Part shown: piece after piece, positions 8,196-54,355 of the stretch
Layout: each line of letters starts with the position of its first letter
How positions within the stretch are numbered: position 1 is the stretch's first letter
IMG/VR virus record: IMGVR_UViG_3300033153_001834
Coordinates: 1 to 57,520 of that record
Length of the DNA stretch: 57,520 nt
From: a virus
Lineage: Duplodnaviria; Caudoviricetes
Direction: 5' to 3' (one strand)
The notes under the pieces: model-generated
The model's input: the letters and a program-made list of their open reading frames with translations, nothing else
What the model was told of the DNA's origin: nothing
Databases searched by the model: none
Program-made: the position numbers and the translations under genes

Positions 8196-8423
8196 ATGAG
8201 ATTAAAAAAGGCAATTAGAATTGCAAAAGATTGTGGATTAACTACTTTTTCAGAAGTTAAAAGAAATATTGAAATTCATGCTATGAATCTTTTTGAATGG
8301 AGTAAAGTAGAGGAAGAGTTAGCCGAACTTCAATTAGATTTAGAAAAGTTAGCAAAAGACTTTGGTGTAGAATTAGATGAATTGCTAACTTGGAAAATAA
8401 AGGAAATAGAAAATGACATCTGA
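8196..8423 (+). CDS. hypothetical protein
   Basis: packed ORF. Confidence 0.55.
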   Translation: MRLKKAIRIAKDCGLTTFSEVKRNIEIHAMNLFEWSKVEEELAELQLDLEKLAKDFGVELDELLTWKIKEIENDI

Positions 8424-8598
8424 AAAAGATATGTTTTCATTTTTAACAAACCTAAGAGATTCTGGTAAAATAAATATGCTAGGCGCAATTCCATTTTTAA
8501 TAGACGAGTTTAATATTGAAAGAGAAGAGGCTAGTCAAGTATTTGGCAATTGGCAAGTTTCATTATCAAAACCATACTGCGAGGATTGTGAATCATGA
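8413..8598 (+). CDS. hypothetical protein
   Basis: FL..LRDSG..NM.GA.P.L..EF pattern typical of small phage proteins. Confidence 0.6.
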   Translation: MTSEKDMFSFLTNLRDSGKINMLGAIPFLIDEFNIEREEASQVFGNWQVSLSKPYCEDCES

Positions 8599-51274: not shown

Positions 51275-52090
51275 TTACTGAACAGCTTCACGTAAAGTTT
51301 TAGCTAGAGTTGGATTGTTCTTATTCAATTTTGCTTGTTCTGTAATAGAATAACCATTACCTTTCTTATCAAAAGGATTATTAGTAGCATTATACTTCTT
51401 ACCACCAACATTAATAGTTGTATCAGAACCTTGATTTTGAATAGGAAAAGCTCCTGAAAACGCTTCATTAGCTTGAAATTCAGCGATTAATTCCGAAACG
51501 ATCATAGGGTCACCAGTCTTTACGTTCATCCGTTCCGCACCAGAAGTATCAACTACTTTAGTTTTATAAAGACCATTTTCATCTTTAAAGGTTTGAATGC
51601 TATCTTTAATATGAGGCATTAATAGAACTTGAGAACCGTTTACCTTTTCAATTTCTTTTAAAGCAACGTTTTCAATTAGTTCGTGGTCTAAAGCTGATTT
51701 TAGCCCTACAATTTCTAAGTCTTTAGATATAGTTAAATCACTAACAATCTTTTCGTGACTATTAGTCATATCATTCTTAAGCTTATTCCAGTTTTCAGAT
51801 GCAACTAAAGCTTCTTCTTCAGCTTTAATTCGATCAGATTCGATTTTATCTACATTTTCGATATATTTAGTATATCCATCTAAATCTAAACCTTCAGCTT
51901 TCTTTGATAATTCTTTAGCATCATTTAAGCGACTAATAAGGTCAGAATTTTTATCAACTAAACCTTTCTTTTGATTTTCAATATCTGTATTATATAGAGT
52001 ATCAAAGTTTTCTTGAACAGCTGACATTAATTTTGCTTGGTCTTCTGTTAGGTTTAGCTCTTTCATTAAATCTTTTATTGCAATTGGCAT
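51275..52090 (-). CDS. capsid scaffolding protein
   Basis: coiled coil (GL..KN..L), NPF......TEQAKL...NP.LA C-terminus; ATG at 52090 after AGGAAGGA. Confidence 0.75.
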   Translation of the reverse strand: MPIAIKDLMKELNLTEDQAKLMSAVQENFDTLYNTDIENQKKGLVDKNSDLISRLNDAKELSKKAEGLDLDGYTKYIENVDKIESDRIKAEEEALVASENWNKLKNDMTNSHEKIVSDLTISKDLEIVGLKSALDHELIENVALKEIEKVNGSQVLLMPHIKDSIQTFKDENGLYKTKVVDTSGAERMNVKTGDPMIVSELIAEFQANEAFSGAFPIQNQGSDTTINVGGKKYNATNNPFDKKGNGYSITEQAKLNKNNPTLAKTLREAVQ

Positions 52091-52120: not shown

Positions 52121-52142
52121 GGCGTTAAGATTAGTTAACGCC
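52121..52142 (-). terminator. stem-loop after the tRNA-like/leader/protein cassette
   Basis: GGCGTTAA-N6-TTAACGCC followed on - strand by TATATTTTT. Confidence 0.55.
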
Positions 52143-52153
52143 ATTTTACTAAA

Positions 52154-52522
52154 TTATGCAGCTTTCTTCATTTCTGGAGACTGATAAATTCCAGACTTCC
52201 ATTCGTTTAAAATCTTTAGATTTTCTTCACGCTTATCTGAATCAGAATATTTTTCAACCATAGACTTAACTTTACTCCAGTTAGGTATGGTCATAGAAGT
52301 TCGTTCTATTTGTTTATATCCTAAACCTCTTATTAATCCATAAGCAAGATAAGTTGCTCTTGCAATAGGTCTAATATGAGTAGTTCTATGTAAATAGATA
52401 GATTCTCTTCTCATATTTGATTTATAAGAAAATTTACCTTTTTTAATTGATAACTCTTCTTTACGAATAATGCGTGATTCTTCTGCTAACGATTTTATTT
52501 TGATCTTTAATTCAATACTCAT
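52154..52522 (-). CDS. basic helical protein of unknown function linked to tRNA-like RNA
   Basis: TAAGGTG SD, ATG at 52522; LKIKIKSLAEESRIIRKEE...HR...IR..ARATYLAY....G..Y..IE. Confidence 0.75.
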   Translation of the reverse strand: MSIELKIKIKSLAEESRIIRKEELSIKKGKFSYKSNMRRESIYLHRTTHIRPIARATYLAYGLIRGLGYKQIERTSMTIPNWSKVKSMVEKYSDSDKREENLKILNEWKSGIYQSPEMKKAA

Positions 52523-52572
52523 GATATTCACCTTATTGTTTAATTTTAATTGTTATTTATAAAAAAATTAAA

Positions 52573-52612
52573 TCAATTTGGTGGTCCACGGTTATGAAAT
52601 TCAATGCTTCAT
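52573..52612 (-). CDS. leader peptide MKH-(UGAA)-FHNRGPPN requiring +1 recoding
   Basis: AGGAGA SD (52624-52619); ATG AAG CAT TGAA TTT CAT AAC CGT GGA CCA CCA AAT TGA. Confidence 0.6.
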
Positions 52613-52642
52613 AATTATTCTCCTATATTTTACGCTGTAAAA

Positions 52643-52711
52643 TGGTGAGTGTGCAGGGAATCGAACCCTGTGCTACCGGATTGAAAGCCTTTTGCAAAGC
52701 CCTTCACACCC
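52643..52711 (-). tRNA. non-canonical D-armless tRNA-like RNA, 8-nt anticodon loop (UUCA)
   Basis: GGGTGTG/CACACTC acceptor stem, A-CCA end, CAGGG-TTCGATT-CCCTG T arm; no D stem; TGC-AAAA-GG[CTTTCAAT]CC-GGTA-GCA arm. Confidence 0.75.
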
Positions 52712-52765: not shown

Positions 52766-54355
52766 TCAATTCTTAATTTCCGTATTCTTAATGTTATTCC
52801 CTGTTTCAAGATTTGAACCTTTTAAGCCTTCGTCTTGTCCTGATCCAGACCCTGGTCCAGGTAACGCTGGAGTTAACTCTGCAGTTAATCTAGCAGCAGT
52901 AGCAGCAATCTCCGCATCTTTTTCTTTATCAAGAAATTGAGGAGGATTTTCCTTAATATCTGCTATTTCTTCTTCAAATGTCTTATTAGCGTTAATTATT
53001 TCGCCTTCTTTCATCTTCTCAAACATTGTCTTATGAGAAATAGCTCCGTCTATCCAAGAACGAACTAAAGCAATTTGAGCATTTGGTTCCATGTCTACTG
53101 ATAAGAAATCTGAATTAAGTTTATAAACAATCTTCCTTGCATCTTTACCTGCCCAATTAAAATATATTTTTAAAATTTCTTGTAATTGAGAAGAGATATT
53201 TTGAACGATTGAGGTTATAACCGCAGTTTCTTGACCGCTTCTTATTAAAACAGAAGTAGCAGTTTCACGAGAAACACCTTGTTGTTTTAAGATTTGGGCT
53301 CCAGTTACGGCCATTGTCTCTCTTAAATCTTCAATATAATCACGATGAGCTTGCGCTGACTTTCCATCAAACTCAAGCATACCAACTTTAGCGTCTGGAT
53401 TGCCTAAAACCCATAATTTAGAAGAGCCGATTGTTGTTGGAGTGTCTTCATCATCTGCATCAACACCTGTAATCCAAGGAGTTGGTAAAGCAGTCATATG
53501 CAAGACTTCAATTTGGTCTACAACTCTATTAATTAGGTCAATATTTAAGTCAGATACGTCCTGAAGTACTGATTTATCAATAGAATAGTTATTAGACTCT
53601 TTACCGTGAATAATAAGTGGTATAGCATCTAATTCCTGACCGTTCTGCATTATAAAATTATCTTTAACACTTTCGTCAGAGTATTCAGTCTTATCTTTAT
53701 CTCTTGCGTAGTTAGTTTCGTCAGGTTTAGGTATATTACGCTCATATTTACGTACACGAACCCGATTTTTACCCTTATTTAGCTCAGATGGGTGTAAACT
53801 CCATACATAATGGACTTTTACTATCTCTAAAGTAAATTCATCGTCTGCTTTTTGTCTTTCTTCTTGTACAGAATAGACAAACTGGGATAATTCAGGATAA
53901 CCTTTATCGTTAGACGTTTGGAAGCTAACAAATTGTTCTGGCTTAATTAAGGTTAAGTAAGGGCGGTTAAGAGGCGTAGAAAAGTCCACAATCGAAGCAC
54001 AGAAGCCTTGCTTTAAGACTTCATACGGTATTTGAGCAGCATATTCGTTAACAGAGTTACCAAGTAGGTCTACATTTTGATATAAGATATCACTATCTTC
54101 TACAGGAAGTTCGTGTAGAGGTGGCTTCTTAAAGATTGAAGAGTTAAAAGATGAAATGACTTTAGGGTAATATAAGTAAAAAGGTGTTCTAGCCCATCTT
54201 GCAGCTTTTTGGTCGTCGGAATCTAGCTCAAGACCAGCGTAATATTGGTCCATATTCTCTAGCATTTTCTTACGACCAGCGTATAAATCGTTATTTTGAT
54301 TTATTTCTGATTGCAAAGCGAGTACTTGTTGCGACATTTTAAATAAATAAGCCAT
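52766..54355 (-). CDS. portal protein (DUF4055-like)
   Basis: follows TerL; F.K.P, LH.TALP.P.I.G, G.LEF.G, ETATS, GAIS..T. Confidence 0.85.
   Translation of the reverse strand: MAYLFKMSQQVLALQSEINQNNDLYAGRKKMLENMDQYYAGLELDSDDQKAARWARTPFYLYYPKVISSFNSSIFKKPPLHELPVEDSDILYQNVDLLGNSVNEYAAQIPYEVLKQGFCASIVDFSTPLNRPYLTLIKPEQFVSFQTSNDKGYPELSQFVYSVQEERQKADDEFTLEIVKVHYVWSLHPSELNKGKNRVRVRKYERNIPKPDETNYARDKDKTEYSDESVKDNFIMQNGQELDAIPLIIHGKESNNYSIDKSVLQDVSDLNIDLINRVVDQIEVLHMTALPTPWITGVDADDEDTPTTIGSSKLWVLGNPDAKVGMLEFDGKSAQAHRDYIEDLRETMAVTGAQILKQQGVSRETATSVLIRSGQETAVITSIVQNISSQLQEILKIYFNWAGKDARKIVYKLNSDFLSVDMEPNAQIALVRSWIDGAISHKTMFEKMKEGEIINANKTFEEEIADIKENPPQFLDKEKDAEIAATAARLTAELTPALPGPGSGSGQDEGLKGSNLETGNNIKNTEIKN

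Follow-up and report, generated by a model that had tools for sequence, protein, structure and literature searches.

A stop-interrupted leader and a tRNA-like RNA with a four-letter match to it form a candidate translational switch in a tailed phage

The module described here belongs to a tailed phage (Duplodnaviria; Caudoviricetes) known from the IMG/VR record IMGVR_UViG_3300033153_001834, and it places a tRNA-like RNA with an anticodon loop of eight nucleotides (nt) directly ahead of a minute open reading frame (ORF) whose early stop codon, together with the base that follows it, is complementary to four letters of that loop. The window, by which we mean the whole stretch of DNA that was analysed, is the entire viral record of 57,520 bases; it has 31.6% G+C and is about 95% complete by estimate. 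Genes for the large terminase, the portal, the scaffold and the major head protein were identified on its minus strand with Pfam and PHROGs, and the module lies on the same strand, with the portal gene (52766-54355) on one side and the scaffold gene on the other. It consists of five parts in order, namely the tRNA-like RNA, the leader, a hairpin, a gene for a protein of 122 amino acids (aa) and a terminator-like hairpin (Table 1). A first-pass annotation made from the letters alone had named three elements at this place, the tRNA-like RNA, the leader, and a gene for a basic protein followed by a stem-loop. Each of them is present on the minus strand at the coordinates given in Table 1, and they are real and far beyond chance.

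Table 1. Features of the module in the window (SD, Shine-Dalgarno sequence)
Feature	Positions	Strand	Basis
tRNA-like RNA without D arm, 69 nt	52643..52711	-	sequence; ARAGORN mitochondrial mode; Rfam match to tmRNA ends, 20.5 bits
Anticodon loop C-U-[U-U-C-A]-A-U	52680..52687	-	UUCA at 52685-52682, complementary to leader UGAA
SD of the leader, AGGAGA	52619..52624	-	sequence
Leader, AUG AAG CAU UGA-A UUU CAU AAC CGU GGA CCA CCA AAU UGA	52573..52612	-	sequence
UGAA, proposed four-base codon	52600..52603	-	sequence and comparison
CGU GGA CCA CCA, RGPP in the +1 frame; also the strand that pairs with SD and AUG	52579..52590	-	sequence, fold
Long hairpin, hiding SD core GGUG (52532-52529) and AUG (52522-52520) against the RGPP codons	52517..52592	-	predicted fold
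Gene for basic all-helical protein, 122 aa, presumed regulated output	52154..52522	-	ORF, AlphaFold2, family searches
Terminator-like hairpin GGCGTTAA-CTAATC-TTAACGCC with T-rich tail, closing the module	52121..52142	-	2 terminator-like sites (one hairpin, counted once per strand); shuffles would give 0.4

The AUG of the leader, at 52612, stands 31 nt past the CCA end of the RNA. Read in frame, the leader ends as MKH at a UGA (52603-52601), and the next letter, at 52600, is A; if UGAA is taken in one step, the reading continues as MKH-X-FHNRGPPN to a stop at 52575-52573. The first-pass annotation had held that the +1 frame has no usable start of its own, and this frame indeed contains no ATG, GTG or TTG. 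The motif R-(A/G)-P-P of arrest peptides is represented by RGPP one codon before the stop of the +1 frame, that is, near the C terminus of a small ORF that lies 5' of a co-oriented gene. By our own criteria a leader of this type is unique on both strands of the 57.5-kb window, and 20,000 shuffles of the 120-nt spacer gave the +1 version 0 times and a version in any frame 5 times. The UUCA of the RNA lies within the text CUUUCAAU.

Relatives of the module were gathered by a scan with the protein, which gave 66 viral loci and, from metagenomes, the best 80 of 115 relatives. De-duplication left 104 distinct upstream regions, which were scored by script; single loci are denoted here by L and a number. 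The first-pass annotation had proposed collecting homologues and inspecting the DNA upstream, and what is found there is a suppressor tRNA together with a leader of the form SD-AUG-x-stop-x-PP. Of the first 60 viral loci, 46 have a tRNA that ARAGORN called with the anticodon CTA, and 5 more have tRNAs with odd anticodons. The tRNA adjoining the gene usually ends about 110 nt upstream of it, and between the two, in the 260 nt upstream that were read, lies a mini-ORF made up of an SD, a start, 1-9 codons, TAG, 2-6 codons and xPP. An in-frame TAG followed by xPP was scored in 71 of the 104 loci, TGA-A with PP in the +1 frame in 11, and TAG-A with PP in the +1 frame in 2; in-frame TGA leaders numbered 0 of 104, one further call (L035) was an artefact, and in 19 loci the script found no leader. 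Across all classes the stop follows PP directly in 60 of 84 leaders, R or K immediately precedes PP in 46 of the 84, and RxPP occurs in 24.

Of the 71 in-frame TAG leaders, 58 have as their nearest suppressor-type tRNA one with the 7-nt loop YUCUAAA (a count that includes tRNAs with position 31:39 paired or unpaired) and 6 have one with an 8-nt loop, and for 7 none was found. A tRNA was identified for 8 of the 11 TGA-A/+1 leaders, the other 3 loci being short contigs or lacking a clean tRNA call, and all 8 carry the 8-nt loop NUUUCAAN; they are the window, L002, L005, L069, L072, L073, L074 and L080, and the loop text of L002, L069, L072 and L073 is identical to that of the window. Both TAG-A/+1 leaders go with the loop NUUCUAAN, which presents UCUA (L092, CUUCUAAU; L004, AUUCUAAA). 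In both classes, then, four loop letters are complementary to a four-letter site in the leader, and the letter after the stop is A in 13 of the 13 +1 leaders of this protein-first set, for which the search did not require an A. Co-variation of the anticodon with the leader quadruplet had been set beforehand as the test of the first-pass interpretation, and it is seen: UUCA goes with UGAA and UCUA with UAGA. The parts of the module, their order, the +1 frame of the PP and the four-letter match recur across many distant phages.

The 8-nt register of these loops is clear in three relatives with better stems, where the contiguous stem pairs number 5 (L080), 4 (L073) and 3 (L005) in the 8-nt register and 0 in the 7-nt register in all three. 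The loop of L080 is AUUUCAAA, closed by a perfect stem of 5 base pairs (bp), and the Rfam tRNA model aligns L080 with one inserted loop base; that model accepts L072, L080 and L073 at 51.9, 51.3 and 45.0 bits against a cut-off of 29. Taken over the nine tRNAs of the +1 class, 68.2% of the anticodon-stem cells are paired in the 8-nt register as against 46.7% when the register is slid by -1, and the two loop-proximal pairs always form. In the T stem of nine family tRNAs, 93.3% of the cells are paired and 3 of the 5 pairs change on both sides.

A second collection was made from the RNA side by scanning viral contigs for GG-CUUUCAAU-CC with a T arm, which gave at least 99 distinct matches. Among the 99 matches listed, 25 are not tRNA-like, 36 are better accommodated in a 7-nt register, as ordinary tRNA-Glu would be, and in 38 the 8-nt register is better or tied. 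Of these 38, again among the matches listed, 35 stand beside a gene of the protein family (22 with the gene downstream and 13 with it just upstream), and at least 23 have a TGA-A/+1/PP leader, the leader scripts having looked for stop+A only. The corresponding UCUA pattern gave 13 distinct matches; for 5 of them the 8-nt register is at least as good as the 7-nt one, and each of these 5 adjoins a family gene; TAG-A/+1 leaders occur in four UCUA loci, one of them scored as 7-nt register. L248 is the same contig as L002, and any other overlaps between the two collections are left in these counts. A second gene order, in which the leader is followed by the protein gene and then at once by the UUCA-loop tRNA, was observed in L229, L271, L273, L305, L328, L334, L344, L349, L360, L366 and L371. 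In bacterial and archaeal genomes a single peptide pattern retrieved 3 loci, all on contigs of metagenome-assembled genomes.

Among the closest relatives, the protein of L069 is 55% identical to that of the window (best tblastn segment) and that of L068 70%, and the module follows the portal gene in both. Between the window and L069 the RNA is identical at 65 of 69 positions, the spacer at 67 of 120 and the protein gene at 209 of 369. The leaders of L069 and L068 read MNN-UGAA-FYYHDPP and MKN-UGAA-FYYHDPPQ, and the three differences between them within FYYHDPP are all synonymous in the +1 frame, which argues that the +1 frame is translated.

The RNA of the window combines canonical and unusual parts. 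Its acceptor stem of 7 bp (GGGUGUG/CACACUC) has a G2:U71 wobble, a discriminator A73 and an encoded CCA, and its T arm, CAGGG-TTCGATT-CCCTG, is canonical; acceptor stem, NCCA and a T arm with a GTTCRANYC loop are as in ordinary tRNAs, a D stem is missing, and the usual 5-bp stem with a 7-nt loop is replaced by an 8-nt loop. The first-pass annotation had reported this loop with its UUCA, and both stand, with the correction that the closing stem has only two G-C pairs (GG/CC), beyond which the arm continues through mismatches to an outer UGC/GCA helix. Taken alone, the window RNA is ambiguous in register, offering 2 contiguous stem pairs both to the 8-nt loop and to a 7-nt loop (CUUUCAA, anticodon UUC). 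In mitochondrial mode ARAGORN calls a 69-nt 'D-loop' (D-armless) tRNA, drawn with a D-replacement loop. Other D-armless members also have outer helices, GGGGC/GCCCC in L004 and, by eye, GGC/GCC in L068, which suggests that a long anticodon arm may act as compensation; an exact-pattern scan of viral contigs for further D-armless relatives returned 0. In L068 (about 140-215) the loop text is the same and, by eye, the acceptor pairs at 4 of 7 positions in the homologous register; decay might account for this poor stem, as might a different fold or a misassembly of the 1.3-kb contig.

Past the stop bypass, the leader appears to be wired to initiation of the protein gene. A fold of -17.5 kcal/mol is predicted for the 101 nt that reach from the leader to the gene start (z -2.68; 2 of 200 shuffles were as stable), and in it the leader strand CGUGGACCACC pairs with the segment GGUG...AUG, the SD core GGUG being matched by CACC from the two Pro codons and the AUG by CGU, the Arg codon. 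The same tendency was sought in the 58 loci with a clear start at least 30 nt past the leader, counting a locus when at least 5 of the 11 bases of the SD region pair with the segment from -15 to +16 nt around the leader end. By this prediction 43 of the 58 loci pair, as against 169 of 1160 shuffles, so that the predicted fold of the window and the predicted pairing in the family would both give the sequestered downstream start that arrest leaders have. Our findings thereby favor one of the roles that the first-pass annotation had offered for the protein, that of the regulated output.

Based on these observations, we propose that the phage supplies its own stop-codon-reading tRNA to gate a translational switch, all parts of which lie in this locus, a reading to which we assign a probability of roughly 0.7. 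In this mechanism, the tRNA-like RNA, with its loop C-U-UUCA-A-U, would be charged and, once the three in-frame codons of the leader had been read, would compete for the fourth with release factor 2. Were release to win, the ribosome would end after Met-Lys-His and stay upstream of the hairpin. Were the tRNA to win, UGA and the following A would be used in one step, either through four-base pairing of UUCA with UGAA or through an equivalent +1 shift brought about by the tRNA, and the ribosome would go on to read FHNRGPPN in the +1 frame and to slow or arrest on RGPP just before the stop. A ribosome standing on the RGPP codons would free the SD and AUG of the next gene, and the 122-aa protein would be made. 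The comparative data are thus in accordance with what the first-pass annotation had supposed, a tRNA that reads stop+A and a leader that senses it. Seen across the family, we think it fairly probable, if with somewhat more reserve, that tailed phages have kept over deep divergence dedicated four-base tRNAs for stop+A (UGAA or UAGA) as a kind of self-test, in which a tRNA that is made, charged and able to beat the release factor causes the 12-residue leader to stall and so turns the protein on, and that in the present phage the decoder, acting on a bacterial ribosome, is a D-armless RNA whose anticodon helix is extended.

Several observations weigh against this proposal. For this phage the chief doubt attaches to the RNA, which is unusual and weakly paired: no tRNA anywhere in the window is called by ARAGORN in standard mode, the Rfam tRNA model (RF00005) gives no row for the window at E up to 10, and a stem of two G-C pairs is a weak closure for an 8-nt loop. 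A rival hairpin, GGGCUUU-GCAA-AAGGCUU, takes up part of the anticodon loop, and with the acceptor and T arms fixed its predicted fold lies at -22.4 kcal/mol as against -18.8 kcal/mol for the anticodon-arm fold with the outer helix; the predicted probability of the loop-closing G24-C33 pair is 0.002. The anticodon stem is weak across the class as well, with the fourth pair unpaired in 7 of 9 tRNAs, and its covariation is modest, 6-7 of 500 shuffles reaching the observed values. Loops of 8 nt also stand beside in-frame TAG leaders in L007/L008, L010, L017 and L039, so that an 8-nt loop alone does not predict a +1 leader; these loops are of the type CC(C/U)CUAAY (CCCCUAAY, CCUCUAAC) or are GCCCUAAC, all of them lacking a U just before the four letters, and the UCUA of L017 could match TAG-A even though its leader is in frame. 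The sole in-frame TGA leader that we saw, the TGA-G leader MVMPQ-TGA-AELLTKIRGPP-stop of L301, lies on the minus strand about 380 nt after a GG-CUUUCAAU-CC tRNA, and the only UCA-containing loop of that locus is of the UUCA type, which would mean that UUCA-type tRNAs may also read triplets or that another tRNA acts there. As for the RGPP stalling leader of the first-pass annotation, the xPP near the leader end is conserved and the RGPP itself is not, the closest relatives having HDPP. A quick protein tree requires 3 changes for the TGA-A/+1 class, in three or four basal groups, and it leaves room for a single origin, so that the +1 loci cannot be counted as independent events. Finally, no gene in the window is split at TGAA or needs UGAA decoding or read-through, and the leader is therefore the only visible client of the tRNA.

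Some of these points would also fit a tRNA that causes a +1 shift without four base pairs, either by reading GAA with UUC or by reading UGA with UCA and then slipping in translocation, of the kind argued for in the case of laboratory frameshift suppressors. The tie between registers in the window, the 7-nt form in which ARAGORN's mitochondrial mode draws the RNA, and the 8-nt loops beside the in-frame leaders of L007, L010, L017 and L301 speak for it, and the mechanism of SufB2 is treated as an open question in the abstract of a preprint (bioRxiv 10.1101/2020.12.31.424971). We nonetheless consider it unlikely, given the absence of any contiguous 7-nt pairing in L005, L073 and L080, the better pairing of the 8-nt register over the nine tRNAs, the invariant fourth letter A of the protein-first leaders and the joint switch of anticodon and codon between UUCA/UGAA and UCUA/UAGA. 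It is also conceivable, if improbable, that the window RNA is a decayed relic of a family tRNA that does no decoding, with the leader and protein silent or expressed otherwise. Loss of the D arm, the two-pair anticodon stem with a rival hairpin predicted to be about 3.6 kcal/mol more stable, the failure of standard tRNA detectors and the pairing of just 4 of 7 acceptor positions in L068, whose protein is the closest, would all be consistent with decay. Against it stand the far better preservation of the RNA than of its surroundings in the comparison with L069 (65 of 69 positions, the gene keeping 209 of 369), the intact CCA, acceptor stem, T arm and loop text, the synonymous-only change in the +1 frame of the relatives' leaders, and the outer helices of the window, L004 and L068, which look like structural compensation and not like decay.

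Two further explanations separate the leader from the RNA beside it. In prfB, an early in-frame UGA precedes a productive +1 frame, release factor 2 competes at the UGA, and an SD-like stimulator lies about 3 nt upstream; the leader shares the early UGA, the +1 productive frame and the presumed competition with release factor 2, and might accordingly be a prfB-like sensor of that factor, in which the UGA is slow, the tRNA in the peptidyl (P) site slips by +1 unaided and the adjacent RNA does something else. This is very improbable, as the leader lacks a slippery P-site codon (CAU would need AUU to re-pair, and among the codons CAU, AAU, AAC and ACC that precede UGA in the +1 leaders none re-pairs at +1 with AUU, ACU or CCU), its SD ends 15 nt before the UGA, and it has a dedicated tRNA and yields a stalling leader as its product. 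Such a sensor would also leave unexplained why 35 of 38 UUCA-loop tRNAs among the matches listed stand beside the module, and why TAG-A leaders go with UCUA loops. It is scarcely credible, in turn, that the RNA resembles a tmRNA or tRNA but serves another purpose than decoding, such as that of a processing signal for ribonuclease (RNase) P or Z, an integration-site remnant or a decoy. The only Rfam match of the window RNA is to the two ends of the transfer-messenger RNA (tmRNA) model, and the homologous tRNA of L002 directly follows a permuted tmRNA gene, but the match reaches 20.5 bits against a cut-off of 47, and the RNA has 24 nt where the model has 328, which leaves no tag reading frame. 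An mRNA-like domain with a resume codon and tag frame is accordingly lacking, as is the alanine identity pair of tmRNA, G3:U70: position 3:70 is G-C, and the wobble is at 2:71. The 5' acceptor strand is present, so that the RNA is not an attachment-site fragment, and the loop letters co-vary with the leader.

A full-text literature search, supplements aside, turned up no account of an 8-nt-loop tRNA from a phage together with a leader that contains a stop, and the locus fits none of the related systems as they are defined, namely laboratory +1 suppressor tRNAs, RAPP-type arrest leaders, phage suppressor tRNAs and prfB. With the laboratory +1 suppressors (sufD, SufB2, sufJ) and engineered quadruplet tRNAs, including evolved UAGN decoders, it has in common the extra base, the 8-nt loop, the four-letter complementarity and the +1 outcome (PMC9094753). 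Those tRNAs arose by suppressor mutation or design and mostly read sense-codon quadruplets, whereas here the tRNA belongs to a conserved natural gene with a stop+A target and a dedicated target in cis and, in this phage, has no D arm. Among arrest peptides, according to PMC12992588, RGPP and RAPP are the most robust and context-tolerant arrest motifs and are not relieved by elongation factor P, with RGPP reported as the strongest and RDPP and RSPP as partially permissive. Like ApdA, ApdP, ApcA and SecM (RAGP), the module has a small upstream ORF with R-x-P-P near its stop and a next start in a stem that a stalled ribosome could open. Peptides of the ApdA type run to tens or hundreds of residues, usually bear export signals and report on Sec or YidC activity, whereas the chain here has 12 residues, with no room for an export signal, its motif appears only after the stop has been bypassed, its input is a tRNA and not protein export, and the downstream gene is not a localization factor. 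Many module relatives, moreover, have KPP, HPP or DPP in place of the RxPP of arrest peptides.

Phages with reassigned stop codons and suppressor tRNAs were reportedly described by Borges and co-workers in 2022, and we know of no sensing leader in work on stop-recoded phages. Here too a phage-encoded tRNA would read UAG or UGA, but in-frame reassigned stops are lacking: the present phage uses the standard code, and no gene needs read-through. In metazoan mitochondria, tRNA-Ser(AGY) is D-armless, and the window RNA resembles such tRNAs in its short connector in place of the D arm, its extended anticodon helix and its ARAGORN mitochondrial-mode call; it differs in coming from a tailed phage of bacteria and in having an 8-nt loop and no variable region, and most members of its family keep a normal D arm.

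Laboratory suppressor mutants and engineered code expansion have made four-base decoding familiar, and a natural, conserved pair of tRNA and target would show its use in evolution. If the proposed switch is real, these phages would supply ready-made, matched and selection-shaped pairs of tRNA and reporter for UGAA and UAGA, as well as a clean natural system in which to follow how an 8-nt loop moves the reading frame. The regulation would also be of a new kind, with the contest between one particular tRNA and a release factor deciding whether a gene is expressed, and the D-armless form, if it is active, would enlarge the set of RNA forms known to be accepted in bacterial translation. Our analysis also draws attention to a very large unannotated phage protein family whose expression seems tied to stop-codon suppression.

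That family comprises 3,719 representatives at 50% identity. The window's member has 17 K and 10 R and an isoelectric point of 9.99. AlphaFold2, using 29 aligned relatives, models it with a mean pLDDT (predicted local distance difference test) of 90.1; residues 3-28 and 33-64 form a long helical hairpin, short helices come after it, and the invariant residues K8, S11, L12, E15, I19, R20, H45, R46, R51, R55, A60 and E73 lie mostly on the hairpin. Searches of Pfam, PHROGs, NCBIfam and PADLOC gave no family match at thresholds, and Foldseek against the PDB gave no match at E <= 0.001; the best Z in a wide VIA-align search was 7.3, all hits being generic helical hairpins and below the level that the tool regards as meaningful for helical proteins, and BFVD and the ESM Atlas returned only uncharacterized phage proteins and unnamed viral clusters (scores <= 0.82), respectively. 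We infer from the model that a basic helical hairpin of this kind would fit RNA or ribosome binding. The protein family serves both UAG-type and UGA-type modules, and a role specific to one release factor therefore seems less likely. The other roles that the first-pass annotation had entertained fare less well: a chaperone or charging partner specific to a D-armless RNA finds no support, most family loci having tRNAs with normal D arms, and nothing in the profile or structure searches ties the protein to SmpB. The ten ORFs examined directly downstream of family genes encode HNH or RNase H-like domains, a weak VWA match or nothing recognizable, and thus point to no common operon partner.

In the window, 79 ORFs (code 11) span 95.6% of the sequence, and 16 of the 79 end in TGA, in keeping with the standard code. 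An A follows in 11 of these 16 TGA stops, mostly on account of ATGA(A) overlaps of stop and start. A TGAA junction at 8421 was considered as an interrupted gene and rejected, as its +1 frame is the next, overlapping gene (8413-8598) of an ordinary overlapping pair, and a 117-codon +1 extension after 48315 was likewise rejected as a frameshift product, being a gene with its own ATG. In the relatives' loci, dropping either TAG or TGA as a stop raises ORF coverage by a similar amount. A DNA similarity search against deposited phages returned no match to the window, and among public sequencing runs no RNA run is listed with the window sequence; 2 DNA runs each contain a small share of the sampled words. 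The scaffold ORF listed from the ATG at 52144 starts inside the terminator-like hairpin, and the ATG at 52090, after AGGAAGGAAAA, looks like the real start.

Variants of the leader follow the same logic. In L024, L046, L052 and L056 the read-through frame goes on past SRSPP, reaching an ATGA overlap with the start of the protein gene in the first two and entering the protein ORF itself in the last two; judged from the arrangement of the frames, translational coupling would act in these four loci instead of, or besides, opening of the hairpin. In L098, L125, L147 and L107 an ORF of about 85 aa takes the place of the mini-leader, about 300 nt upstream of the protein gene, opening with M-S or M-T-S and TAG and ending in (V/A)PP-stop. 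L035 has the same ORF end with no stop codon within and no CUA tRNA nearby; the script had scored it as a 'TGAC +1' leader, a call that we rejected, since what it picked up is the end of a long ORF finishing in VPP. The sensor of L015 and L101 is attached to what reads as a real gene, an ORF of about 70 aa that closes with TAG, six codons and PP-stop (KVFKPP in L015). The tmRNA gene of L002 (2418-2858), mentioned above, is a permuted two-piece gene directly upstream of the UUCA tRNA and matches Rfam tmRNA_permuted at 123.1 bits, and in L030-L032 (about 2225-2764) ARAGORN calls permuted tmRNAs beside the CUA tRNA, so that phage tmRNA genes sit beside the suppressor module in these loci.

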